Source of the DNA: Eledone cirrhosa
Lineage: Eukaryota
Length of the DNA stretch: 64,000 nucleotides
Assembly: GCA_964016885.1 (NCBI GenBank)
Contig: OZ024743.1
Span: forward strand, 77,190,001 to 77,254,000
Direction: 5' to 3'
The number at the start of each line of letters is the position of its first letter. Position 1 is the first letter of the stretch. The translations under genes and the position numbers were made by a program. Below are positions 3,001-61,656 of this stretch, piece by piece. The notes under the pieces were generated by a model. It was not told where the DNA came from. It ran no database searches and was given only the letters and a program-made list of their open reading frames with translations.

Positions 3001-3357
3001 TGTTAATCTCATCTAAATACTTTTGAGTCATTGTTGGTTGATGCAAAGAAAATTGAAGGTTACCAGTAAGACTGGCTTTCCAGAAGACTGCTATTAATTA
3101 TCTACCTTATTATTCTGCTGAATAACAAGTTCAACTGTTTATATCATGGAACAAGTACATTGTTTCTTCTTATCACTGGTTCAATATATCAGAATGGTTC
3201 AATTTTGCCTTTAGACTTATAGTAGTTTACTTAATAGATAACTGCTGCATTAACCTAATTTAATTTGTGTAAACTACTGACAGACTACAATAAATCTGTG
3301 TGTACTTTAAAGTTTGACCAATAGTTAGTTTATCTTTTAGCATTGGTGCTTCTCAAC

Positions 3358-3385
3358 ATGGCGAACATCTTCAAAACTTCTATTG
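3358..3385 (+). CDS. AP1G1: Probable upstream coding exon of AP-1 gamma adaptin (exon 3341-3385), encoding MANIFKTSI+G, phase 1
   Basis: Acceptor tatcttttag ends at 3340, aacATGG is a strong start context, and donor TTG|gtaagt is at 3386. The leftover G joins the GT at 6913 to give Gly in frame with MPTPKRLR. Confidence 0.62.
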
Positions 3386-6300
3386 GTAAGTGGTTTTAAA
3401 TAATTTAAATTATATATATTTATATATATATATATCTTGTCTTTACACGTACACACACACATGCACATATATATATGTATATAATATATATACATATATA
3501 TATATAGTTATTCAGAAATATTTTGCTTGAATTAATTGTTTTTTACCCTCTAGTTTGGATAATTCTCAGTAGTTTTTGTGGCTGATTTGATAAGTAGTGG
3601 GTGTTAATTTCACTTGATCAAGTAATTTATGTATCTCTTAGTGTTTATTGTTGGTATTTTATGTATCTCTCAGTAGCATTTATTGTTGGTATTTTGTGTA
3701 TCTCTTAGTAGCATTTATTGTTGGCGTGTTTGTATTTGTTAGATCTTGACAAGAAAATAACCTGCAGATAAAACTATTATATTTGAATTTACATTGGGAT
3801 TTCCTTTTTTTTAAATTTAGTCAATGATATTGATGATGGCATTAATACAAAGCTGTTTAGTGGCTTCAGACTATCAAAGCTCTTAATAAGATAAATGATT
3901 TATTAGTAGGTGTTTTGTATTTTTTCTCTTTATTTTCTGATCTCATGAATATATTCTTACTGTGAACTGACTAAGCTAAATTCATTTTTGTTTTATAACA
4001 TTATTAAAATAAAATTTCGAATTTCTACATTTCTAAATTTCAAGTAATAAATATAAGGCTTTGAATATTCGTGTATGGAGATATTTTTATATAGAAATAT
4101 ATTTTTTATTAATGTTTCCCCGATTTTAAGAATAGTTATATCGTATTCCTGCATGTCATAAGAGGCAGGTAAAGGGTTGGCATGAAGAAGGGCACCTAGC
4201 TGTAAAATATTGTCTCAAAACATCCCATCCAACCCATGCTAACATGGAAAAGTGAATGTAAAAAATGATGAAACAAAACATTTATCTTCATTAATATAGT
4301 AAACCAATTTCATTTTTTTTTCACCTGGTAATTAATTTTGACAAACAACTTAGTTTCTCTTCAGGTGAAGTATTGTCATATTTTGCTGCAGTGTTACCAT
4401 AAAGCTTTTGTCATCTCACAATCTTTTTGATTTTCATTCAAACAAAATTTGGAACTTTTTAATTCTTTCAATAAGTGCAGTTATTGAAGGAAGAAAAAGA
4501 CATTTCGTTTTGTCTCTCAGTTGAGTCTAATATGTAATCAGAGAAAACAGTTATTCTTAAAATTACAAATAATTGTCTGAAATAAATGGAAAGACTTTCT
4601 TAAGAAACCATAACATATAATAGTTTCTGATTTAGGCACAAGGCCTACAATTTTGGGGAAGGAAAAGTTGATTAAATCGAGCCCAGTGCATTACTGGTAC
4701 TTTATTTTATTGACCCCTGTAAGGATGAAAGGCAAAGCTAACCTTGGTGGGATTTGAACTCAGAATGTAAAGGGATATAACTATAAGTTGCAAGCATGGT
4801 GTCCAATGTTCTACTGATTCTGCCAATCTAACCATATAATGGCTGATGAATTGCTTTAATAAATCTTACAGGCTTTTTGTTTTAGCTGCTGAGTTTAATT
4901 TATATAATATCTCTGAAAACCAGAACAAAATAAAATCTATACAAATCTACAGACCTCAACAATTATAACCTTATCTTGGGCTAAATATATGTTAAAACAG
5001 CTGAACTAAGACCTCAATATCCAGCATTGATGTTTTTCAAATCCTTGGTCACTCTCAGTATTGGTTCTACATCTATCTAGATGTCATTACTGAGTTTGTC
5101 AAGAATACAGTCCATGTTTTGGTCACTCCCAGGATTGGTTCTACATCTATCTAGATGTCATCACTGAGTTTGTCAAGAATACAGTTCATGTTTTGATGCT
5201 CTTTCCTGAAGTCACATATGTTTTCACTATTTATCTGACATCATATATCTTTATTTCTTGGCTCTCTTATTACATTTTTATATCCTTTACTCTTCAGTAA
5301 TTTGAAGGGTTTTTTTTTCTGTCAGTGAAAACTGTCTTTTCTTTTTTCATTTTCTTGTATGATAAATGTTTTCCCTTTTTCATTCCAGTCTTAATCTTCC
5401 TTTGTCTGTTGGAAAATATCTTATTCAAATTATTGTATTTAAATGAAATTTATGAGTTCAAAATAAGTTGACTTTTGTTACTTTTCATTAACAAAGAATT
5501 AATAGTTGGTTTATTATTATTTTTTTTATTTTATCTTAACGGCCTCTTATCATAAACACTTTTTCCATATTGCTTATAATATAAAATGGTGATTAAAACT
5601 GATTCTTTTAGAAAGAAATAGAGATGAGATGAATTTCTTTTTTCTTTGGTTGTATGGGTTGGATGGTTCTGCAGTACAAATCTTTTTTTTCCATTTTGAT
5701 TTTGTATCCTGTGAGGTTTATTTTCAGGTTTGACCTCACCACTTTTTCCCTATATCATACTTGATATATCTCTCTATCACTACTACCCTCCACTTTTAAC
5801 TCGCAACACTTTCATCCTGTGTGTATCATTTCACATCACATACTACACCAGTGGAGCACTTTTGCACCGATTCTGTCTTAACTCATATGCACTCATAAAT
5901 ATTGCGTAGCCATCACTCATTTCTCATATTTCACTACCATATAGCATCAACTTTCTTATACTTACCATATATAGTCAAATACAGAGAAAGAAGTCCTTAG
6001 TCAACTGTGGTAATAGTTCTCTAAACATCTTAAACTATGTTTCTAACCGAGCTACTATACTTTCATTAATTGCATTATCTATGAGCAGAATTTTAGTCTG
6101 ACCATTGAGCCACTCCAGTAGCCCACAGCGTTTATTTCATGACTGTTGGTTATTTTGGTCTGTTTCATTGTTCTAAAATTGTGTTATCCTGTCAGTTTAC
6201 CAGAGGTCTCTATAATTTGTGAAACCATAAGCTGCGGCCAGACCCTCCTCATAATGGGACCACCCAGTTCTACACTGTAAATGTGGTTGGTGTTAAGAAG

Positions 6301-6912
6301 GGCATCCTGCTGTAAAAGAGAGAGGCCAAAATGCAGTTCCATTTGAGAAGGTAGAGCGTGGCCAGCTGACCAGACTTGCCTCATAATGTGGACGACCTGT
6401 CTAACCCATGCAAGCATGGACAAATAAGACGGTAAACAGTGATGATGATACCTACTTGCATTGTGTCCTACATATTATACAGGCTCTCTTTATATAAGAT
6501 GCTCTTTCTTAATTTCTTTCTCTTAACTAATTCAATATTTGATTTATGTCATCTATTTAATAAATTATTCAATAAAATTTTCACCTCTTATATCAAATTA
6601 ATCCTGGGTTACCTTAAATTAGTAGAGTTCTACTAATTATAGGTAATACCCGAATATAATTACTTTGATTCAAAGTGTATCCTGAATATTATTTGATTTG
6701 TATTTTATCTTTATTGGTAATATAAAATTCAATATTTTTTTCTCTTGAATTTAAATTTTCAAACAATTAAAATGTTTTTATGTTGCATTGTTTCTAACGT
6801 GTTTGTTGCCTCCCTCCTCAAATGTTGGCTTAAAAATGAAACATATGTTTAACTCTCTAATGTTTTAATGTTATTAGAAACAAATCTTTTAAGTAAGAAT
6901 TCTATTTGACAG

Positions 6913-7115
6913 GTATGCCAACCCCGAAGAGATTACGGGACCTGATAAGGGAGATCCGATCAGCCCGTACTGCTGCTGATGAACGGGCTGTAGTGAACAA
7001 AGAATGTGCCCAAATTAGGGACTCGTTTAGAGATGAAGATAACACGTATCGTTGCAGAAATGTGGCTAAATTATTATATATACACATGCTTGGCTACCCA
7101 GCTCATTTTGGTCAG
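6913..7115 (+). CDS. AP1G1: AP-1 complex subunit gamma-1, exon [16 protein letters not shown]...[10 protein letters not shown] (conserved ATG at 6915)
   Basis: Recognisable gamma-adaptin N-terminus. Acceptor tttgacag, donor CAG|gtaagt. 201 nt from the ATG, phase 0. Confidence 0.97.
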
Positions 7116-7197
7116 GTAAGTAAACTTGCTAAAGTAGGAATTTAATTCTGTATTCTACTTGAAAGAGAATTGTTTCTCTATGACTGACTATCAAATC

Positions 7198-7413
7198 TTA
7201 ACCCTTTAGCATTTAAACCAGCCGTATCCGACCAGAATTTTCTCACCTCTTTCTGTTCAAACCAACTGTAACTGGTCGATTATACTGATGTTAAGGTATG
7301 GTTCTCAAAATAAATCTCATAGATTTCATATTATGTGAGATATATGCGAGATAAAGCCTTTACCAAAAAAATACAATAGTAAATATAGAGTAATGTAAAT
7401 GCTAAAGGGTTAA
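7198..7413. mobile_element. piggyBac-type MITE family A; copies at 12143-12353, 28448-28661 and 41749-42888
   Basis: Terminal inverted repeats (TIRs) TTAA|CCCTTTAGCATTTA...TAAATGCTAAAGGG|TTAA, with TTAA target sites. Confidence 0.85.
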
Positions 7414-8395
7414 ATGATAGAAAAACACAAAAATATATTTGGTTTATTCTTACTGCTTTTGATGTATTTTGTAAAAGCACCTCAAGATATCATGAGCACC
7501 ATTACAACACAATAAAATGTGTTGGTGTACTTTCTTAAAATAACACTGAAAGCTTCACTAATATTTTTTACTATAATAGTCAAATAATGGGGCATATAAA
7601 CCCACTGAACAGAAAAAGATTGGTATAAGTATCCCATGTCTGCTGATAGCCATGTTTTTCAGTTCACTGGGTTTATATGCCCCATTGTTAGACTATATTG
7701 CAGTAAAAGATATTACAGTGAAGCTTCTATTTCAATTCTAAACTTCACTCGCCAAGTTCCCAAAATATTTCCTTTATTAACACTGAAAGCAGTTTATTAT
7801 GTGGTTTGGCAGTATCGGTAGAGCCTCAGACACCATGCTTTGCAGCATAGTTATGGCCCTTTGCATTCTGAGTTCAAATCCACTGAGGTTAACTTTACCT
7901 TTCATCCTTACGGGGTCAATAAAATAAAGTACCAGTAATGCACTGGGATAATTGCTGGCCTTGTGCCAAAAGTAGAAACAATTATGTACTTTCTTTTTAC
8001 ATAACATTTTTAATGACCTTCAAAACTATTGGGAAGTAGAAAATGATTGCGGCAGACTGTACTTCACTAAAAGCACTCAAGAGACAAGTGTTGGCGTTAA
8101 ACTAGGCAACAGGTTAAATCTACAGCCTAAGAATGAGAACAGTCTCTCCACACAGTTTCCATCTACCAAATTTCACTCACAAGGCTTTGGTGAACCTGAA
8201 GCCATGGCAGATGACATTTGCTGAAGGTGCTGTGCAGCAAGATTGAACCCCAAATTATGTAGTTTTGAAACTTCATAGACACAGAGCTATGTCTATATAT
8301 AATGACTGTATGCTATGTTTCTCATCAATTTATGCTGTTGTATGAATTGAAGCAACTTGAAGAGTTTAATAAGATTTTAATTACCAACATAAAAT

Positions 8396-8696
8396 ATAAA
8401 AGGTATAATCCCCTTTTTCTGTAATAGGGGTTCATTCTTATATAAAAGGCATCATCCCATTTCTCTGTAATAGGCGTTTGTTCTTATATAAGAAGTATAA
8501 TTCCCTTTCTCTGTAATAGGAGTTTGTTCTTATATAAAATATAAAAGGTATTATCTCCTTTCTCTGTAATAGGGGTTTGTTCTTATATAAAAGATATAAT
8601 CTCCTTTCTCTGTAATAGGGGTTTGTTTTTATATAAAATATAAAAGGTATAATCTCCTTTCTCTGTAATAGGGGTTTGTTCTTATATAGAATATAA
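8396..8696. repeat. Minisatellite, unit about 42-50 bp
   Basis: Repeated tctctgtaataggggtttgttcttatataaaa. Confidence 0.9.
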
Positions 8697-8770
8697 AAAA
8701 ACCACACATGCAAAAAATAAAATAAATATCAACACATTTTTATTTCAAAACAAAATAATGACATTTTTGA

Positions 8771-8908
<138 letters not shown>

Positions 8909-8982
8909 TAAGTTATATTTGCTCTAGCAAAACTATTTTAGTCATTGCTCTCAGATGCACCTCGTGTACGTCAAAAGATGCT

Positions 8983-11807
8983 ATAATAATAATAATAATA
9001 ATGAAATTATTGTGTAAAGTGCTCAGGTGCACTACAACTCATGTATAGTACATAGAATAATACACAAATGTCAGGGAAGTGAAAAGTGTATGAGTCATGA
9101 TATACATGTGTGTATGTGTATGGAGGGGGAACATTAGGTGTAATGTTGGCGAATCTCGGGAAGCATGGAGGCCTTAAAGGATGCAGTGTCTCGACAGCTA
9201 ACAACCGATGCAGGTAGTTTGTTCCATGCTTCAACAACTCTGAGCATGAAAAAATGTTTCCGAAAGTCATGGGAACTGTACTGTTTTCTGACTTTGTGGG
9301 CACGTCCACGTGTGTTAGACACATGGAAATCAAAAAGGTACTCAGGGTTGTTGTTGGCAAGATGGTTAACAATTTTGTGGGTGTTTACCAAGTCAGTTGC
9401 CAGGCATCGGAGCTTTAATGTATCCATACCCAGGGAAGCATGGCGCTCAGAGTATGGTAGATGCCTGATGGAGGGTATTCGCTTGGTTGCACGTCTCTGA
9501 ACAGTTTCCAGGCGGTCAATGTTCTGAGCAAGATAGGGGTTCCAGACTGGTGATGCAAATTCTAAGTGTGGCTGCACCATAGCCATGTGCAGCCTTAAAT
9601 AGATAGCTGGAGAGCGGCTGGCAAAGGTCTTGCTGAGTGATGCTAAGACACCCTCGGCCCTCTTGACAATTTTAGAGACGTGCTTCGTCTAACGCAAATC
9701 GCTGCTGACCGTAATGCCCAGGTCACGTTCACAAGAAGACTTCTTGATATTAGTGCTGTGGAGGGAGTATGTGGACGCTGGGTTTTTACTCCCAAGATGC
9801 ATGGTGGTGCACTTGTCCACAGCTAGCTTGAGTTGCCAGTTTGAGATCCATTGTTGCATTGTGTCCAGGTCAGACTGCAAGCAAGATCTATAGTGTTCAG
9901 GATCTGTCCTTTTTATCTCAAGGTACAGCTTGATGTCATCTGCGTACTTTAGTACTGTGACATTCTTTAAGTTGGCATCTATGTCATTAATATATGCCAC
10001 AAACAAAAGGGAGCCAAGAACAGATCCCTGTGGTACACCAGATGACATCTCATATGGTGAGGAATGCTGTCCCAGAACCGTGACTACCTCTCTTCGACTG
10101 AGAATGAAGAACTTCAACCAGTTAAAAAGATCATCCTTCACACCCATTGCAGAGAGTTTTGCCATAAGCCTTTTGTGTGGCACAGAATTGAAAGCTTTCG
10201 CAAAGTCAAGGTAAACAACATCCACCCATGAGCCGCCATCAGTGATCCGGGTGATGTTTTCAAGAAACTTGATAAGTTGATCACAGTAGCTGGAGTTGGG
10301 GATAAATCCAAATTGCGAGGGCCGGATAAGACTGTGAGAGTTCCAGAAGTTCCAAAGTGTTTCTCTGACACAGGATTCCATCAGTTTGGCAATGCAACTA
10401 GTAAGACTGACTGGACGATAGTTCACAGGTGATGTGTGGTCAACCTTTTTGAACAGAGGAATGACACTGGCAGTTTTCCACTGTTCTGGAGTAGCACTGT
10501 TGTTCAGACAGAATTGGAAGAAGCATGATAACTGGTGCAGAAGTAAGTACCCACCACGTTTAAGAAGCAGGTACGTAACACCATCAAGCCCAGGAGAGGC
10601 ATGGTTGCGTTTATCTTTTAGGTGACATCGCAGCATTGCAGGTGTAAATTCCATGGTTGTAATAGAATCCGGTGTCATAGGTGGTGGAGACGGTACACTC
10701 TGGTCTTCAATAGTGAAAATGCCTGCATAGCATTCAGCAATGAGCTCTGCGCATTCCTTGGGGTCGTCAGTAACCTGGCTTGTGTGGTGATTGTGAAGAG
10801 GACCAACTGGAGAGTGAGGCCTCTGCTTTGAGTGAACATACTTCCAGAACACCTTACTGTCAGGGCTGGTTGCTATGCGCTGCTCAAATTGAAGCACTGC
10901 CTTTTTTGTCACCTGTTTGAGGTGGTTGAACGATCTATTTCGCCTCTTCCTATTAATGTCTGATTTGTGCAGTTTGTACTCACGTTCAGCATTGCGACGT
11001 TCTTTTCTGGCAAGACGGACTACTGCAGTCTCCCAAATTGCACTTTTGGGATGTTTTTTCCGCTTACATGGCACCGATGCTGCACATGCTGTCCATATTG
11101 AGTTCAGGATGTTTTGGAGTACAGTGTTGACATCTCCAGAGTCATAGAACTCAAGCCAGTTTGGCCGTTGCAACTCGGTGCAGTAACAGTTCCAGTCTGC
11201 TTTATTCCAGTCAAAGTGAGCAGTTTGGAGATGGTTGTGGTTCTTGTTACTGCCCATGAGGGATAGATTGGCAATGATCATAGCATGATCAGAGTCACCT
11301 AAAGGTTCCTCAGCAGTAACACTAATGACCATTTCAGGAGTAGTGGTGAAGAGTTGGTCAAAAGTGTTGTCACCTCTTGTTGGGGAGGTGACTACTTGGG
11401 ACCAATTCGAGTCCAGCACTAGCTCAAGGAAGTCATTTGCACTTGGCGGCCAACGAAAGGTTTCCCAGTCAATCTCAGGGTGATTGAAGTCTCCTGCAAT
11501 GAAAACATAAGTGGCTGTTTTCCTGGCAGCAGCACTGAGGATATCACAAAGTTGAGTGTCCTGATGGTAATTTGGGGGACGGTAAACGACTCCAAGTAGC
11601 AGTGTTGACATGGTCATACGTATATCGCAGAAAAAAACGTCCTGCTGTGATTGGTTCAAATTAACACAAGGAATTGCTGACAAATTTGACTGAACGTAGA
11701 CCATTACACCACCACCACCACCACGATTAATGCGGTCTTTACGAAATAGGTTGTAGCCAGTTATGCTGAAAACCCCATCACAGAGTAAGGGATGTGCCCA
11801 AGTTTCC
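8983..11807 (-). mobile_element. 5'-truncated CR1/L2-group LINE; ORF2 (APE endonuclease plus RT) split by one stop codon
   Basis: ORF 11809-9689 has ETW, YRPP, GDFN, SDH, NYRPVSLTS, YLDFAKAF, GVPQGSVLG and YADD, and continues in frame into ORF 9586-9134. (ATT)n 3' tail at 8983-9002. Confidence 0.93.
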
Positions 11808-12678
11808 ATGCTGTCGGGATTGGGTTTAGATCAGCAAAGTATTCTCTCCAACCTCTCGTGAGGGTACACATCTCTTCAGAGAGGAGAACCCCAGATGTAT
11901 TTCTGATAAGAGGTGTGTAGGAGGACTTATTACGAAGTCAGCAGATGGTCTGCCCAAACACAGGAAGACTCTGCTCTCACAACCCTCCCAGGAATAAATG
12001 TGAAGAAACTATTTATATTTCCTTGGAATGTAGTTTTATCTTCAGAAGCTGTTTTAGCAGTTTACACTTATATGTATTCATTTATGTATATTTGTTTTAG
12101 TTTTAAACCTTTTAATTTTTTATGTATTTTTACCCAAACAATTTAACCCTTTAGCATTTAAACCGGCCTTATCCAGCCAGAATTCTCTCACTTCTTTCTA
12201 TTCAAACCAGCCATAACCAGCCGCTCATATCAACATTAAAATATTGTTCTCAATTAAATAATAATGTCATCAAAATCTTGTAGATTTGATATTATGTGAG
12301 ATAAAGCCTTTACTGTTAAAATACAATAGTATAGAGTAATAGAAATGGGTTAAATTATAGCTGAAAATAATAACATTGTTAGATATGGTTGTCAGATCTT
12401 ACTGGGTGTTTTATGGAATAAAGGAAACTGTCTAAAGTAATGACTTTTCCCTTTGTTTCATTCAACATTTGCAGTTTTATTTAATCGCAAGACATGTCAA
12501 CCAACACTAACAATTCTGTACTTTATTTTGTCCATTCAGAGCAGGTCTCTGGTTTTGAGGATACCTTCCTCACTCCTACCAGTCTTGAGAGGTTTTGAAA
12601 AGGGTCATAGAATACTACCTTTCCCTTTCTCATGAAACAACTAAAAAAAAACTCTATTGTGGAGAAATATGTTTACTG

Positions 12679-13077
12679 TTAACCCTTTCATGACCACATT
12701 TCTAATGAAATACACTATATTTTAATTAATTAATGAAGAATTTTGAGGAATTTATTAAAATTGTTAATTATTTATTTACTAAGATAGTAACTTAATATAA
12801 AGTCTTTATATAAGATTATACTGGAAAAAACCTTTAAAATGGGTGGTTCTATTTCATATTTGGAAGATTTTAAATTAAATTGGAAACTTTCAAAATGGGT
12901 GGCTTTATTTCATATTTGGAAGATTTAAAAATAAATTGGAAACCTTTAAAATGGGTGGTTCTATTTCATAGAACCAGGGCCAGTTTTGGCTGGGTTGGTA
13001 ACTGAAGGGTTAAAATAGGTGGTTTTATTTTATAGAACCAGAGCTGGTTTTGGCCAAGCTGGTAACTAAAGGGTTAA
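12679..13077. mobile_element. piggyBac-type MITE family B; copies at 13390-13729 (inverted), 28960-29408 (with a SINE insert), 44647-44882 and a diverged one at 41587-41746
   Basis: TTAA|CCCTTT...AAAGGG|TTAA ends and a shared internal atgggtggttttatttcatagaaccagagc. Confidence 0.85.
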
Positions 13078-14912
13078 ACACTCTGCTGTCAACAAAAATA
13101 TTTGATGTGTTAATGAACGATAATTGGTATTGAGAGTTAATCATAATGCAGCATATGACAGATTAAATCTAAGAATTACCTGCCTTCTATTTACAGTAGT
13201 CACTGTAGAGGTTTAGTATATAAGATGATGATGATGATGATTTTGAATGTATATTATTCACTATCAAAATTTTATTCTTTTATTTTTACGTCTGTTTTCT
13301 TTGTATCTTGGTAACAATAGCCATTGTTTATATTCAATGTGCAGTAGCCATTGCTTGTTGTGTATTGCTACAATTTAGATAATTGATACTTAACCCTTTA
13401 GTTTCCAACCTGGCCAAAACCAGCTCTGATTCTTTGAAATAAAACCACCCATTTTAAAGGTTTCCAACATAATTTTATATAAGAACCTTACATAAACCCT
13501 TTAGTTTCCAACCCGGAGAAAACCAGCTCTGGTTCTATGAAATAAAACCACCTATTTTAAAGGTGTCCAATTTAAGTAAAAATCTTCCAGCATAATTTTA
13601 TATAAGAACCTTACATTAAGTTACTATCTTAGTAATAAAATAATCATTTTAGTAAATCACACAAAATTCTTCATTAATTAATTGAAATAGTGTATATTTC
13701 TTTAGAAATGTGGTCAGGAAAGGGTTTAAGATCATACACATCACTATTATTATTGTAAAACCTTACCTACTATCTGTTGTGCTTGAAGATTGCTTCTCTT
13801 ATCTTCCCCCCCCCCCCCCATTTAGTATTGGAAATTTCATGTAAGATTTTCAATTGTTTTCTAAAATTCTGTTAGTATACATTTCAAAGTTGTATTATAG
13901 GATTTATTGTGAGACAGTTTCTAAGACTCACAAAGGAAAGATGTGTTGTGACTTTAACAACTATTGTGTTGACATATTAATCTATAAAGTTTCCAGACCA
14001 TAGAGAGGATCCCTGTTGTATTTGAAATAGCTTGAGAAGTTTTCAGTATACTTCTTTGCATAACACTATAGAGGTATTCTGATTCTAAGCAGCCTGGGAT
14101 ACAACTCTTCTCTCTTTATCTCTACCCACAGCATGGAGTTAACCTTTATGACAAGGGGCATCAGATCACTATATTCCTTCTATTTGGTAACTAAAGTTCT
14201 CCCTTACATCAATGAAACTTATGAACAAGGCATGAATTACAAAAGCCATATTACAGGTTGTGGGTGTAGAGGGCAGTAAATCTAAATTGATATCAGTTAG
14301 AGGGATTTCTTTACTCTTCCTTGCATGAGATAACTCCTCTAGTGCTTGTGGCATAATGCAATTCACCCAGTACACTCTGTAAAGTTCTTGGTAGGAATAA
14401 CATTCAACCACAATATACATGTCAAAATGGAATGTACAAGTGAAGCATGAACTCCACAGGTCACATCATAGGCTATCCATCTGCAAGAGGAATAACTCTG
14501 AATAAGACTTCAGAAGGACAAAGGAATTGTTTAGCCCTCCTAGCATAGAAACAATGTCTCTAGTACCTGTGTGATGATGAAATGTGTCCAGTCCAAACAA
14601 GACAACACCTATGTTGGCCAGTTTTTCTTTATTGTTGTGTGTGCAAGATCACATGTATAATGTTGACTGTCCAATCCATGCTAGGATGGAAAAATGGATG
14701 CAATATGATGAGTCTCCACACAGTTTCCATTTATCAAATTACAGGACTATTGTAGAAAACATCAATGATGCCATTCAGAGGAATCAGTCCTGGAAACACA
14801 TGGCTGCAAAGCAATACTATACTTCTTATATGTCCAAAGTGTATACACAAGACAGTAAATGCAAACCAAACGCTTCAAAGAAACTTTTTGGTGCAAATAG
14901 TTCATCAGATAT

Positions 14913-15793
14913 TATATAAGAAATAACAGGTGGTCAGCAGAGACCACGTATAGTTTCATATTTGTGGTTTACTGTGGTGTTATATAAGAAATAACAGGTG
15001 GTCAGCAGAGACCACATATAGTTTCATATTTGTGGTTTACTGTGGTGTTATATAAGAAATAACAAGTGGTCAGCAGAGACCATGTATAGTTTCATATTTG
15101 TGGTTTACTGAGGTGTTATATAAGAAATAACAGGTGGTCAGCAGAGACCACGTATAGTTTCATATTTGTGGTTTACTGTGGTGTTATATAAGAAATAACA
15201 GGTGGTCAGCAGAGACCACGTATAGTTTCATATTTGTGGTTTACTGTGGTGTTATATAAGAAATAACAGGTGGTCAACAGAGACCATGTATAGTTTCATA
15301 TTTGTGGTTTACTGTGGTGTTATATACAAAATAACAGGTGGTCAGTAGAGACCACGTATAGTTTCATATTTGTGGTTTACTGTGGTGTTATATAAGAAAT
15401 AACAGGTGGTCAGCAGAGACCACATATAGTTTCATATTTGTGGTTTACTGTGGTGTTATATAAGAAATAACAGGTGGTCAACAGAGACCATGTATAGTTT
15501 CATATTTGTGGTTTACTATGGTGTTATATACAAAATAACAGGTGGTCAGTAGAGACCACGTATAGTTTCATATTTGTGGTTTACTGTGGTGTTATATAAG
15601 AAATAACAGGTGGTCAGCAGACCACATATAGTTTCATATTTGTGGTTTACTGTGGTGTTATATACAAAATAACAGGTGGTCAGCAGAAACCACATATAGT
15701 TTCATATTTGTGGTTTACTGTGGTGTTATATAAGAAATAACAGGTGGTCAGCAGAGACCACGTATAGTTTCATATTTGTGGTTTACTGTGGTG
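14913..15793. repeat. 68-bp tandem repeat, about 13 copies
   Basis: Unit tatataagaaataacaggtggtcagcagagaccacgtatagtttcatatttgtggtttactgtggtgt. Confidence 0.97.
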
Positions 15794-15977
15794 CTTCACT
15801 TGTCTAAGTCTTCAGTTTTGTGTTGTATGTGGATCAATGCTGATATGAAAAGCCATAATGTAGGAGACACACACCATAATAGCATTAAGCCTTGATTTTG
15901 TTACCATAACCTATATAGGTGCCTATTGAAATGTATATTGTTTTCTTTGTTTCCAATGATTATCTTTTACTTTACAG

Positions 15978-16119
15978 TGATCTTACCCATCAGAATCAAT
16001 ATATACAAAGCCTGGCACTGTGTACATTGGGCTCCGTATGTTCAACAGAAATGAGCCGAGATTTAGCAGGAGAGGTAGAAAAATTATTAAAGTCTTCAAA
16101 TGCTTACATAAAGAAAAAG
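15978..16119 (+). CDS. AP1G1: AP1G1 exon (N)[47 protein letters not shown]
   Basis: Acceptor ttttactttacag, donor AAG|gtaaat, 142 nt. Phase matches the previous exon. Confidence 0.97.
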
Positions 16120-17228
16120 GTAAATCAAATGTTTATTAATATTCCTTCAGAACCTTTTTTTTATAGATAAGATGAACTTCTTTTATGATCAGGGATCATA
16201 TAAATATGTTCATATTTTGTCTGTTAGATTGGTTCAGAAAAAGATTTGTGCTAAGAAGCTAACATTTTTGGCAGAAATTTCATACATAAAACCTGGAGTA
16301 ACAAAAAAAAGCAATGTTTTTATTTAGATAATTAACAGGACTTAGGTAACAGTAATTTATAATTTGAAATCATCTGAATATCATAGTATGTCTTCCGGGT
16401 TAGAATAGGTACATTGTATCCCTGCATGTCATAAGGAGTGATTAAAAAGGTTGGTGTCAGGAAAGGTATCTGGCTGTAAAACATTGCCTGAAAAAGTCCT
16501 GTCCAACCCATGTCAGCATGGAAAAGTCGATGTAAAAACGATGATGATGTAGATATATTAAACAGACAAACATATAAGATAGTTTGGTTTCATTTCTCTC
16601 TTAAATAGAGCAGTTTTAGTTGTTTATTTATCATATTTGGTCTTGATGTAACTAATTATGGTAAATAAGCTTTTCAATGGATCCAATAAAACATTTTTAT
16701 TTTATGGCATATGGACTCATCTGTGAGAGCCCCTACTCAAAGATTACCACTGTGGGTTTGGTCAGGCACTCTGCCACCCTCAAAGTGGACTCATCTGTGA
16801 TGCAGTTATGTCAGAACCTCTCCTGGGATGGCACAAATGGTGAGGCTGATATCTGAGATTGTGTATTAGTACAATTAAGTTAGCTCATCATCATATATAT
16901 ATGATGTCTACCATTTGAATCATGACAACATTCACATTTGTATGTCTGTAATTGTTGTGCATGGGTGACTTCTGTTTGTGATGCTGTCAATTCAATAGCT
17001 GGAGCCACCTTAACCTATCTTTTATAAATGCTGATACAAATAATGGTAATAATAAACATTAACTCTACTATTTAAGTTAGTGCTGTTAAAATTTCTCTCT
17101 CATTGCATTTGTTTTTAATTTTATCCAAGTTGCTATTTTTATGAAAGACTAAAAAATCGCCATTATTCTTTTTAAAAAACCATGAAATGTTTTGATGTCT
17201 CCTAATATAGCAAAATCATTTCTTACAG

Positions 17229-17325
17229 GCTACTCTGTGTGCTTTTCGTATAATTAGAAAAGTACCAGATCTTATGGAAATGTTCATTCCAGCAACTAGG
17301 TCTTTGCTCAATGAAAAAAACCATG
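17229..17325 (+). CDS. AP1G1: AP1G1 exon [32 protein letters not shown](G)
   Basis: Acceptor tttcttacag, donor ATG|gtaagt, 97 nt, in frame. Confidence 0.97.
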
Positions 17326-17784
17326 GTAAGTTGCTTTCTAAGATATCTACTTGTAGTTCTGAAGCACTTTTTTTAAAGTTCTATTAACTATAGACGTACG
17401 TGAGAGTAATAATATCAACCTTTCTTGTATTCTTGGAATTTCTAAACATTTTATTTGAAATTTCATTTTTCAGTTTCAAGGACAGATTTCAGCATAATTA
17501 TAAAGGAATTTACTTTTCCTTTTTTATTTTATTTTATTTTTTTTGTGTTTGTGTATGTGTTTTAGGGATTAGTTTCAGAATAAATACTACTTAAAAAATA
17601 TATCCATTAGTTTAACAAAAATAATCCCACATTAATCATTATGATTATTTTCCATCCATCACATACTAATATTGATTAAAAAACATTGTTTGAAATATTC
17701 TGATTTATTTTCCATTTTGTCACATTTCTGAGGTCTGATATATATATATATATATAACCTCAGCGGGATATATACGCAGAACGT

Positions 17785-27450: not shown

Positions 27451-30400
27451 ATTTATGTGTGATATTGCAAGTACAATAAACTCATGTATTCACTGGATTA
27501 TAGTTAATCTACAACAGGACTGATGTTATTTAAACTGACAGCAGCCTGTTTTATGTATAAAACTGGTTTTATTAAAATATATTTTCTTTTAAAATAAATA
27601 TTCTACACACTTCAATAGATTTACTGTTGTAAATAATAAGCTTAGTTGTTAATCAGATGAAATGATTTAAACATTGAATCAGTATGTCATGAAAAATACT
27701 TTAAATTATTTTACTCAAATTAATAAGATTATATTTCGAGTTGTGTATAATTTCTAAATATTTTGGCAAACTGATTTATGTCTGATTTATTAAAAGTATT
27801 TTAAATATTTAAAAATATAAGGGTGGTGGGTTGGCAGTATCGGTAGAGTGTTGGACAACATGCTTTGTGGCATATAGTTACAGACTTTTACGTTCTGATT
27901 TCAAATCCACCTGAGGTTAACTTTGCTTTCATCCTTACAGGGTCGATAAAATAAAGCACCAGTAATGTACTGGGGTCGATTTAATCGACTTTCCCCTCCC
28001 CCCAAATTGCTGGTTTTGTGCCTAAATCAGAAATTGTTTTGCTTTGAATAGTTTATCACCCAGATTAAGCAATTGACAGGAGAAAACATTTTGGAAAAGA
28101 TAAACTTTACTACCAAATTTTGAAAAATAGATTTTTCAAAAACAATATTGTATATTAAAGTATGACATCATTATTTCTACCATATAAAACTGACTTAACT
28201 TAATTATTATATAAGTAATTGATATATAAATTAGTTATAAGTTAAGGAAATGGAGAGACAGAAAGTATAGTGCCAAACTTAATTCTTTGCTTTTAGTTAA
28301 ATTCTGCAATATACGACTTTACCTTTTATCATTTTGGGGTTGATAAAACCAGTTAAGGTCAGTTGAATCAACTACATTCCTAACCATAGTGTACAGCTTT
28401 ATCCTAAAGTTAGAAATCAATGAGGATTGAAATAGAAAAATCTTATTTTAACACTTTAGCATTCACATTACTCTATATATACTATTGTATTTTCACAGTA
28501 AAGGCTTTATCCCACAATATCGAATCTATGAGATTTTGATGTTATTTATTTTTAGAACAATACCTTAACATTAGTATGAGTGGCAAGTTACAACCGGTTT
28601 GAACAGAAAGAGGTGATAGAATTCTGGTCGGATATGGCTGGTTTATATGCTACAGGGTTAAGTAGGCAATCAATTAGCTCACGTCTGTCATCATTTCTGA
28701 TCAAACTAGAAAATAACAACTAGATACTTTAATGACTTATAAATTTCATTGTTAAATATCCATTTTAATATATTCTTTACCAAAGCATTTAAGCTGAGCT
28801 CTTTTTTACCAATACATAAACAATTGTTCTTCTAGGTGTTGGATATTTAAAGAATCATTTAGGAAATGTATTTAGGAAAACTGAGATCTTTAGAAACAGA
28901 CTTCTTTGAATGGTAGATTATGGGTATTACATCCTCGAGATAAAACTATTTGAAAATATTTAACTCTTTTGTTACCAACCCAGCCAAAACCAATGAAATA
29001 AAATCACCCATTTTAAAGGTTTCCAATTTAAATTAAAATCTTCCACCATAATTTTAGATAAGAAACTTACATTAAGTTACTTAGTAATGAAATCATCATC
29101 ATCATCATTGATTAACGTCCATCTTCCACGATAGCGTGAGTTAGATGGGTCCTATTTAGAGGCAAGTTGGGTCAGGTGACCGTGTCTCACTCCTATAGGG
29201 GTGTTTCTGGCTGGTTTTCTACTGTTGGATGCCATTCCTAACTCCAACCACATCGACAGTGAGGGCTGGATGCTTTCTGTGGTGTCTTTTACACATCCAC
29301 TTTACAGTGTGGGCTGAGTGCTAATTTTAGTAAATCCCTCAAAATTCTTCATTAATTAATTAAAATAAAAAGTGTATTTCATTAGAAATGTGACCATGAA
29401 AGGGTTAAGTTAGTTGATCAGGTTTATCAATTCATGTGGAGAATTTAGCTTCTGTAATTGCTGAAATAGGAAATATATTTAATTATAATAAATGAGCTTT
29501 TGGTTGTTTATTGAAAATATATTTTGCTTCAGTTGAGTCTAAATCTAGGAAAATGATAGTATAAATATTCAGTTCTATCCATTATATTTTAATATTTATG
29601 AATTATTAATTCAAATAATTAATATTTAGATTATTTAATCTTCTATATTAATTGAAAATAAATAGGTTTTATTAAATTAGGGTCAAATAAAATGTCAGTT
29701 CTTGTAGTCTAATCATTGTTATTTTAGATGATTTGTCAAACCTATTTTAAATAAAGCTTTATTGAAAATGAAATCGTTAACAATTACAGAGTATCATTAT
29801 ACAAATAGTTCAGTAAGTAACAGATGTTACAGCTATTGTTTCATGTAGTAGATACAGTGTATGGTTAGCAGTACAGGTAAAATAACAGGTAAATAAATCA
29901 ATACTTAATCTAAACCATTAAGAACAACATATATCTGAGTGGTCTGAGAGGGCTGATAAGCATTGCAATTCAATTATTATTAAACTAATTGTAAAAAAGG
30001 TAACTAAATTAAAAAAAGATACGTTTAAAATAAGTTGTTGTTGAATATTTGTTTATTTAAAAATCAATCCACTTGTGCCTTGGCTGTATGAACATATTAG
30101 CCAACTTTTGAAATGGCACGTATGTTTTCTTTTTCCAGGATTGCCAGGTCATCCAGGTGATGGGTATATCCCATGCAACAGGCATGCTGGACGATGGGCA
30201 AAGACTGTGTCTTCAAATGGCATGTCACACACATTGTTGTCTGTAGAAGCCTTACTCTCTGCACTCTATTATTAGCATCCCTGCATTAGAAGATAATCAT
30301 TTCTGGTGTATTTTAGAAACACATTTCCTCTTACACTGTTTATCCATTTAGATTATTACTGTGAATATTAAATATTTTCTTCCTCATAGCTTCCAAAATG

Positions 30401-36059: not shown

Positions 36060-36136
36060 GTGTGTTATTGACAGCTGTCTGCCTAATCACAGAAATGTGT
36101 GAAAAGAGTCCAGACACACTGCTTCATTTTAGAAAG
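36060..36136 (+). CDS. AP1G1: AP1G1 exon (G)VLLTAVCLITEMCEKSPDTLLHFRK
   Basis: Acceptor caatttcag, donor AAG|gtaagt, 77 nt, phase 1 to phase 0. Confidence 0.97.
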
Positions 36137-38625: not shown

Positions 38626-38842
38626 AAAAAAGCAAAGTTGGCCTCAGAAGAATTTGAACAATAAATTATAAATAGAATACCAGTTAAGTACTAGGGTTGA
38701 TTTAATCAAATTTCTGATCTTGTAACTAGGGTGATGGATTGATACAATTGTTAAATCATTGAACAAAATACTTTGTAGCATTAACTTAAGGCTCTTTACA
38801 TGAGTACAAATCCCGGTGAGGTCAGTTTTGCCTTTTATCCTT

Positions 38843-39117
38843 CTGAGGTTGATAAAACCTAGTTTTAGTTGACTTAGTAAGGTTGATAAAACTAAGTACT
38901 AGTTGACTACTGAGGTTGATAAAACCAAGTACTAGTTGACTACTGAGGTTGATAAAACCAAGTACTAGTTGACTACTGAGGTTGATAAAACCAAGTACTA
39001 GTTGACTACTGAGGTTGATAAAACCAAGTACTAGTTGACTACTGAGGTTGATAAAACTAAATACTAGTTGACTACTGAGGTTGATAAAACTGAGTGTTAG
39101 TTGACTAGTGAGGTTGA
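38843..39117. repeat. 33-bp tandem repeat, about 8 copies, amplified from within a SINE
   Basis: Unit ctgaggttgataaaaccaagtactagttgacta, following SINE head sequence. Confidence 0.9.
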
Positions 39118-39899
39118 TTTCATCCACTTTCTCCTATCCTGCTTCCAAATTTCTGAACTAGTGCCTAAATTAGGGACCTTTGTTATTATTTCTTAGTCTG
39201 ATAAAATAGTGTTATATTGCAATCACAATCTCTGCTCCAAAACAAATATTTGGAATTAACAAAAATGATATCTTTCAAATATCTTGGTATTAAGATCCTT
39301 CCTTTTCTTTCCAAACCAGATCATGATACTTAAACATAAAAACAAAACAATTCAATGTTAATATAATTTCAATTGTATTTTGAAAAAAATCTCCTCTATT
39401 TGATGTGGCAAATCAAAATCTTAAGTTAGCTATTGATATCAGATATTCATTTCAACATACAACTGCAATAAAAACATGGTCTCTTAATTACAAATAGAAT
39501 GAAAATAATTTTATGGCTACAAAAGTCCTTTAATTACATTTCAATTGTTTATTGACTAAATATTGTTAACTCAGCTCTTATGCAGTTTACTTCAAATCTA
39601 TTAACTTGTTTAGAATTTCACTAAGATATTTACAGGGTTTTCTATTTTTTTAAATTTTTATTTTCTGTGTATTTTTAAGTTGCTTAAATTTTGGCTTTCA
39701 TTTATCTTAAAATTCACATTCAGCTGGACTGTCAACAAATCCTGTTTAGTATTCACCAAATAAATTTCTTTGTATGGGGAAGAGGGTCTTTACATTAAAT
39801 TGTATTATTTAATCTATTTAAATATAAAGTGGTTTTATTTAACCTATTTCATATTGACTTAACTGATTTTATGTTTGACATCTTTTATGTATTCTGCAG

Positions 39900-39911
39900 G
39901 ATGATGTGGAG
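39900..39911 (+). CDS. AP1G1: Candidate 12-nt microexon GATGATGTGGAG (DDVE)
   Basis: About 68 nt of AG-free, U-rich sequence with branch-like cttaac/ctgat, then acceptor ttctgcag and donor GAG|gtagga. In frame, in the intron position of the known AP1G1 microexon. Confidence 0.62.
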
Positions 39912-40170
39912 GTAGGAACTTGGTTAGTTATTTCAATGTTTATTTTAAAAAAAAAAAAAACAAGAAAAATGCAGATTTGTGAACATAAGGTTGTGCACCT
40001 TAAAATAAGTACCTTAAAAAAAAACATTCTGAGCATGATTTCTTGTATTTTTTTTATTTTTCCCCCCTTACATTGATGGCTTTTGCTCAGTAATTACCAC
40101 CTGAGTAATTTGGGAAAATAGCTTTTTTTTCTCAACTGATTCCTCCTTCTTAACTTTCTGTTCTTTGCAG

Positions 40171-40191
40171 TACATGTCTATATTACCAGAA
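40171..40191 (+). CDS. AP1G1: Candidate 21-nt microexon TACATGTCTATATTACCAGAA (YMSILPE)
   Basis: Strong 3' splice site (cttaac plus tttctgttctttgcag), donor GAA|gtaact. In frame, no stop. Confidence 0.45.
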
Positions 40192-41019
40192 GTAACTAAA
40201 ATATTTTTAATATAACACTAAATAAATATCAAAGAAATATAATAAAAATTATATAAATTTCTTTAATATGACTTTGGTAAAAGAAATGATTTTAATAAAT
40301 TTAATTCTAAAGGTATGTTAATATATAGAACCAACAGTTATATAGTAGTAACATATATTGAATTTGGTTTGTCCATTTCACAGTTTAGATTTCACAGTTT
40401 GTATACTAAATATTAACGTCCTATATTGCATGAAACTGCATTAGCAAGATATTCTTCAAAAGTACAAAATAGCAAGCAGTATGTTTGCATCAATAAAAGA
40501 AATTGTCTTTAGTCTAATACTGCAACATTTTACAACAATTTGTTCTCAAGTAAAGATACTATAAACACTTGAATTTACAAACCTGTTTTTGGACATGTAC
40601 TAAATCATTATAGGATGTTTAGTGTTAATAGTTAGATTCTGCTTTCTTAATATATTAAATCAGAAGTGTAAAAACTGTTTACTGCTATTTCTAAGATAGG
40701 AATTAATGTAGTTGATATTCTAACACTATGCAGTGGTTCAAATTATTTTATTCTATGTAATAAATTCTAGTGTAGCGAAGCGGAGCATTTCAACCGATGT
40801 TGGTTTCTGGCAGCAGTAAATGCGTTCAACTAATTAAATCCAATCAACATATACTTAATTACATAATAATCTTTATAATTTCCATCTAACATCATTTGAA
40901 GTTCAATTTTTTAATTAAGAATAGTTTAGGAATACCTACCTTTAGAAAGTTTGGAAATGTATTAAAAGGAGAATATAAATATTATTCAAGAGATAGCATT
41001 TGAAAAAAAAAAAAAAATA

Positions 41020-41492
41020 GTTTGGCTTCTCCTAATGTAGGTTTAGCTGGCCTCCTCCTAATGTAGGTTTAGCTGGCCTCCTCCTAATGTAGGTTTAGCT
41101 GGCCTCCTCCTAAAGTAGGTTTAGCTGATCTCCTCCTAAAGTAGGTTTAGCTGATCTCCTAAAGTAGGTTTAGCTGGCCTCCTCCTAAAGTAGGTTTAGC
41201 TGGCCTCCTCCTAAAGTAGGTTTAGCTGGCCTCCTCCTAAAGTAGGTTTAGCTGGCCTCCTCCTATGAGGTTTAGCTGGCCTCTTCCTATTAGGTTTAGC
41301 TGGCCTCCTCCTATGAGGTTTAGCTGGCCTCTTCCTATGAGGTTTAGCTGGCCTCTTCCTATGAGGTTTAGCTGGCCTCTTCCTATGAGGTTTAGCTGGT
41401 CTCCTCCTATGAGGTTTAGCTGGCCTCTTCCTATGAGGTTTAGCTGGCCTCTTCCTATGAGGTTTAGCTGTCCCCCTCCTCCCATGAGGTTT
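41020..41492. repeat. 24-bp minisatellite, about 19 copies
   Basis: Repeated aggtttagctggcctc(c/t)tccta(aagt/atgt/tg). Confidence 0.95.

Positions 41493-61551: not shown

Positions 61552-61656
<105 letters not shown>

Follow-up and report, generated by a model that had tools for sequence, protein, structure and literature searches.

A candidate 12-nucleotide cassette microexon in AP1G1 of Eledone cirrhosa at an insertion site of the gamma trunk

The AP1G1 locus and the candidate microexon

The window, that is, the whole stretch of 64,000 nucleotides of Eledone cirrhosa DNA analysed here, holds the 5' part of AP1G1 within a genome of 3.0 Gb. Coding blocks matching octopus AP-1 gamma-1 were found by tblastn at 3358, 6912, 8780, 15978, 17230, 36060 and 61552, and the exon at 61552-61647 also matches mammalian gamma-1 chains (E 5e-15). 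The features of the locus are collected in Table 1, where the ends of the four earlier exons are approximate, except for 15978-16119. Two other AP1G1 exons were observed on the forward strand: an alternative exon of 81 nt (27 amino acids) at 30139-30219, which is found in octopus RefSeq isoforms (eight proteins; tblastn) and, by hand count, seems to be followed directly by a GC donor (GCATGT), and a short N-terminal exon, MANIFKTSIG, at 3355-3387, which matches octopus isoforms with extended N-termini.

Table 1. Features of the AP1G1 region in the window
Feature	Position	Strand	Basis
Four earlier AP1G1 coding exons	6912-17327	+	tblastn blocks near 6912, 8780, 15978-16119 and 17230-17327
Constitutive AP1G1 exon upstream of the microexon, ending ...LLHFRK	36060-36136	+	sequence, tblastn
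3' splice-site region: U-rich AG-exclusion zone of 68 nt, acceptor CAG	39830-39899	+	sequence
12-nt candidate cassette microexon GATGATGTGGAG, peptide DDVE	39900-39911	+	phase 0/0, DDLE/DDYE isoforms of relatives
Donor (5' splice site) GTAGGA, departing from the consensus at +4 and +6	39912-39917	+	sequence
Old high-copy dispersed repeat, ~220 bp, outside the exon	40400-40630	+	genome search, contig depth
Constitutive AP1G1 exon downstream of the microexon, starting LVPQLVRIL...	61552-61647	+	sequence, tblastn

In the 25.4-kb intron between FRK and LVPQ, the first-pass annotation had placed a 12-nt exon in phase 0, preceded by an AG-exclusion zone (AGEZ) of about 68 nt. Direct reading agrees with this description: the exon lies between ttctgcag and gtagga and contains no stop, the AGEZ is exactly 68 nt long, and the flanking exons, which match AP-1 gamma-1, join in phase 0. 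With canonical AG/GT splice sites and a preserved frame, the exon has the properties of a cassette microexon (3-27 nt). A branch-point-like CTGAT is present at 39863-39867, at -37 from the acceptor. No UGC was found between this branch point and the acceptor, the sole TGC being within the acceptor itself at -5, and no TCTC or CTCT occurs in the 100 nt of the acceptor region. A 6-nt reading of the exon (DD, donor GTGGAG) was rejected because the inserts of relatives have four residues. Neither a second microexon nor a duplicated downstream exon was found in the 25.4-kb intron.

It is very improbable that these 12 nucleotides are chance intronic sequence resembling an exon. Generic signals do occur in the intron, which holds 15 in-frame microexon candidates and has an AGEZ of at least 68 nt at 18 of 756 acceptor-like YAG sites. 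Three constitutive AP1G1 acceptors have AGEZs of 57, 47 and 78, and an AGEZ of 68 nt is by itself not diagnostic, nor is it distinctive against the constitutive acceptors of the gene. Only the candidate at 39900 combines an AGEZ of at least 40 with a pyrimidine-rich acceptor, a filter that was chosen with the candidate already known. What stands against chance is the pattern YAG-Asp-Asp-x-Glu-GT, derived from the isoform peptides of relatives, which occurs once in the whole window, both strands counted, at 39900, where 0.0007 occurrences would be expected in the intron.

The surrounding ~1.8 kb had also been described as lacking transposons, which does not hold. When the window is compared with itself, a run of 1.9 kb (39119-41017) is indeed free of repeats, nothing else in the window resembling the sequence at 40400-40630, but a dispersed repeat begins ~490 nt 3' of the microexon, with 3345 candidates in the genome and copies on many contigs; 39 non-self copies among the matches listed have 75-80% identity over most of its length, and contig depth at the repeat reaches ~60,000, versus 8.5. 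Minisatellite arrays at 38840-39110 and 41030-41490 flank the microexon region on either side.

Counterparts in cephalopods and inserts across animals

Homologues were sought with an exon that leaves the FRK/LVPQ junction uncovered, and the cluster members were then read at that junction. In the octopod cluster of 20 members, DDLE stands between FRK and LVPQ in 4 of the 15 proteins listed, of which one is an older model from O. bimaculoides and three are RefSeq isoforms from O. sinensis. The other 11 are without insert; they include every one of the six isoforms listed from the later annotation of O. bimaculoides, as well as three proteins from O. vulgaris and one from Argonauta. Proteins P0134 and P0122 differ by DDLE alone. 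In a second, cuttlefish-like cluster, DDYE was found in one of five junction-covering proteins and on 5 of 70 Logan contigs. The Logan proteins P0138 and P0002 differ by DDYE alone, and P0138, the DDYE form, is 100% identical to a Sepia pharaonis protein over 189 amino acids. These Logan proteins are 819-823 amino acids long on contigs of ~3.2-3.5 kb, and are therefore likely to be assembled transcripts. Included and skipped forms coexist both in O. sinensis (three proteins with DDLE and three without) and among the Logan proteins. Sequencing runs X1 and X3, which come from one sample and are not independent because they are possibly the source of the assembly, have no differences over 39200-40458, and a contig from run X4 (organism B) spans the microexon and, over ~735 bases, has a different letter at 66 places and 52 gap letters.

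Judged by these orthologous DDLE and DDYE isoforms, the 12-nt exon is almost certainly real in Eledone AP1G1, as had been proposed, and is very likely a cassette microexon, its inclusion and its skipping both being known from the proteins of relatives. The first-pass annotation missed that the exon itself is already present in RefSeq models of other octopuses.

Altogether 455 proteins were gathered, a total that is biased because some of the queries carried an insert; 408 match the junction pattern, 47 do not (39 short, 8 long), and 159 are without insert. In a control of 188 long proteins, the junction has 20 distinct inserts (up to 10 amino acids) in 53 proteins, against six in 12 at the next site, although some clusters were picked after inserts had been noticed, and the 20 include Val-initial forms and a fixed flatworm Q. 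By this sequence comparison FRK/LVPQ is the main insertion site of the gamma trunk, and its use across many phyla had been missed earlier.

Inserts accompanied by a skipped form in the same species are found in amphioxus (QNK), a crinoid (LTRG), Drosophila (DSGNRE), Lingula (DEFME) and Lineus (DTDMD) and, among molluscs, in chiton (EHSKT), abalone (GSRHD/GKE), Pomacea (ESE/GVFIIE), Patella (EYE) and Littorina (Q); NEE of Saccoglossus occurred a single time, with no skipped form beside it. Outside the cephalopods, the invertebrate inserts are known at the level of protein sequence. Across phyla the inserts range from 1 to 6 amino acids and have no sequence in common. NEK is constant in 33 proteins of vertebrates as far apart as sharks and mammals, and a six-residue insect insert spans odonates to flies. 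Among the bilaterians sampled, no insert was found in named mussel, clam, oyster, annelid and acoel proteins, and scallops have Val-initial forms only. Inserts starting with Val in other species (VR, VC, VSE, VSDN, VKE, VWI and the like) were set aside, being probably extended donors or errors of the gene models; the flatworm Q was likewise set aside, as an insertion that is fixed.

Other arrangements were observed at the junction. Oyster isoforms (P0140-P0153, P0061, P0066-P0068, P0223-P0224) have two versions of the post-junction exon, VVPML... and VVPNL..., with both in tandem in one model, which suggests duplicated mutually exclusive exons replacing the microexon; no such duplicate of the post-junction exon is present in the window. 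Abalone, Pomacea and Lineus (P0047/P0172, P0164/P0167, P0213-P0216) each have at least two different inserts at FRK/LVPQ, suggesting several small exons within one intron.

Regulation, predicted protein effect and competing explanations

The octopod acceptor has a long AGEZ and a CURAY-type branch point, and similar features are reported for eMIC exons. A UGC enhancer and a UC-rich tract, which are typical of eMIC exons and not obligatory, are absent; in the accessible part of one source, UGC is present in 74-79% of SRRM3/4-dependent microexons and absent in 21-26% (10.1101/2024.09.17.613571). A search for PF15230, the eMIC domain, gave no match in this genome and equally none in any control genome. 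According to the accessible part of PMC12626424, the zebrafish AP1G1 microexon has a PSI of 76 in neural tissue and of no more than 9.4 in any of 12 further tissue groups, with a delta-PSI of -15 on loss of eMIC in fish and of +58 on eMIC overexpression in human cells. In that of PMC8797185, the mouse Ap1g1 exon is classed as 'ASE', not eMIC-dependent, and an 18-nt Drosophila AP-1gamma exon, DmeEX0000073, as eMIC-dependent and glia-shared. The SRRM3/4 link drawn by the first-pass annotation is thus weaker than stated, given the missing UGC, the mouse class and a zebrafish change of only -15, although the human overexpression result speaks for it. With the long AGEZ and branch point present and UGC absent, neural, eMIC-linked inclusion of the octopod microexon is suggested by its position, by analogy, and is held to be quite probable. 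It is unlikely that the exon is a real alternative microexon which is not neural or not eMIC-driven, being included in another tissue or at a low level everywhere through other regulators. Such an exon would suit the lack of a UGC enhancer, the 'ASE' and 'glia-shared' classes and the minor share of the DDYE isoform, but would fit poorly with the strongly neural exon at this junction in zebrafish and human and with the likely eMIC dependence of the fly exon.

The DDLE isoform of O. sinensis was modelled with AlphaFold2 from an alignment of 30 rows. The model has a mean pLDDT of 75.8, and of 80 in the block concerned, and its fold matches AP-1 gamma structures, the mouse chain being without those four residues. 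In the model the insert closes helix 216-225 and continues into the three-residue link before helix 229-243, so the hinge of the gamma trunk is predicted to take the insert with no helix broken. Exons tend to start with G and to end in AG, and the acidic character of the insert may come partly from this splice-site consensus. According to reviews, as far as accessible, the central gamma trunk takes part in a back-side contact with Arf1 (PMC6627992, PMC5540999), which is a candidate for a surface touched by the insert.

If the hinge does no more than tolerate inserts, with small exons arising and drifting in it without function, the exon could also be real in relatives and decaying or near-neutral here. 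This is improbable. The third residue does vary by cephalopod group (V, L, Y), insert length and sequence differ across phyla, and the named mussel, clam and oyster proteins lack an insert; initial D/E/G and terminal E/K/Q would be expected from splice-site consensus alone, and zebrafish deletion screens of microexons, ap1g1 included, gave minimal larval phenotypes overall in the accessible part of the report. Nevertheless DD-x-E, the 12-nt length and the frame are kept from octopods to a decapodiform, and the constancy of NEK in vertebrates and the span of the insect insert also argue against neutrality.

The preferred reading, which taken as a whole is considered probable, is an AP1G1 cassette microexon whose default state is skipping and whose likely place of inclusion is nervous tissue; there it would add DDVE to a predicted hinge. 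The long AG-free U-rich acceptor, the distant branch point and the presumably weak donor would keep the microexon skipped, and a neural Srrm234-eMIC isoform would promote its inclusion. Lying in the predicted helix-helix hinge of the gamma-adaptin trunk, the added loop may tune a surface contact of the central trunk, possibly that with Arf1, and the altered contact would lead to a slight change in AP-1 activation or cargo sorting in neurons. Phyla differ freely in the length and sequence of the insert, so having a loop at all likely matters more than which residues form it.

Comparison with known microexons

The octopus RefSeq DDLE isoforms XP_014784171.1 (O. bimaculoides), XP_029634178.1, XP_036357174.1 and XP_036357169.1 (O. 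sinensis) share with the Eledone exon the junction, the length, DD-x-E and optional use. They differ in having Leu instead of Val at position 3, and are automatic annotations. The vertebrate NEK exon (DreEX0013683, HsaEX0004874, MmuEX0005395) is likewise in-frame and optional and lies at the same protein junction, and the microexon shares its intron position; the earlier placing of the candidate at the NEK junction is borne out by vertebrate proteins and by the zebrafish and mouse supplement entries, which, in the accessible part of PMC12626420, put NEK between HFRK and LVPQ. However, the vertebrate exon has 9 nt against 12 nt, the peptides are unrelated, and the zebrafish/mouse entry lists a UGC, where no such motif precedes the octopod acceptor. 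Inclusion in neural tissue has been measured for the vertebrate exon, whereas the octopod exon is known here from sequence. The description of the candidate as the lineage's equivalent of NEK therefore stands as regards the junction, but is not to be read as homology, because the insert changes in length and sequence from lineage to lineage.

The Drosophila exon DmeEX0000073 likely shares the octopod junction, since in each of four Drosophila isoform pairs, both members coming from one species, the sole difference is the six residues DSGNRE at FRK/LVPQ; from its length and these congeners, the 18-nt exon likely encodes that insert. It differs in length and peptide, and its flanking introns are ~0.5 and 0.9 kb versus 3.8 and 21.6 kb here. 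The fly-mouse comparison in PMC8797185 names four shared-position exons, and AP1G1 is absent from these in the accessible text, presumably because the mouse exon was classed as an ordinary alternative exon. In the literature covered, which excludes most subscription journals, no account of a cephalopod AP1G1 microexon or of FRK/LVPQ as a cross-phylum site was found; Torres-Mendez 2019 could cover it.

The octopod exon itself represents a modest gain in annotation, as neural microexons in trafficking genes are already a known class. The wider pattern is more useful, in that one gamma-adaptin hinge has optional inserts in chordates, echinoderms, insects, molluscs, a brachiopod and a nemertean. 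It is possible, if rather doubtful, that the microexon of the FRK/LVPQ intron, neural and eMIC-responsive, dates back to the bilaterian ancestor, with length (3-18 nt) and peptide rewritten, position and regulation kept, and a function as a sequence-independent loop retuning neuronal AP-1. A study of 20 species including O. bimaculoides (bioRxiv 10.64898/2026.09.05.749416) recognises, in its accessible part, two bilaterian-ancestral microexons, APBB1/2/3 and MADD; AP1G1 has no occurrence in its main text and may be listed in its supplements. If the ancestral origin is true, AP1G1 would be a third such case. The junction offers a clean test case of ancestry versus recurrence, and of insert action by sequence versus loop length, and is comparable with the 'Type I convergent' neural exons, APBB1/2/3 and MADD of that study, where short exons likewise share a single protein position in more than one lineage.
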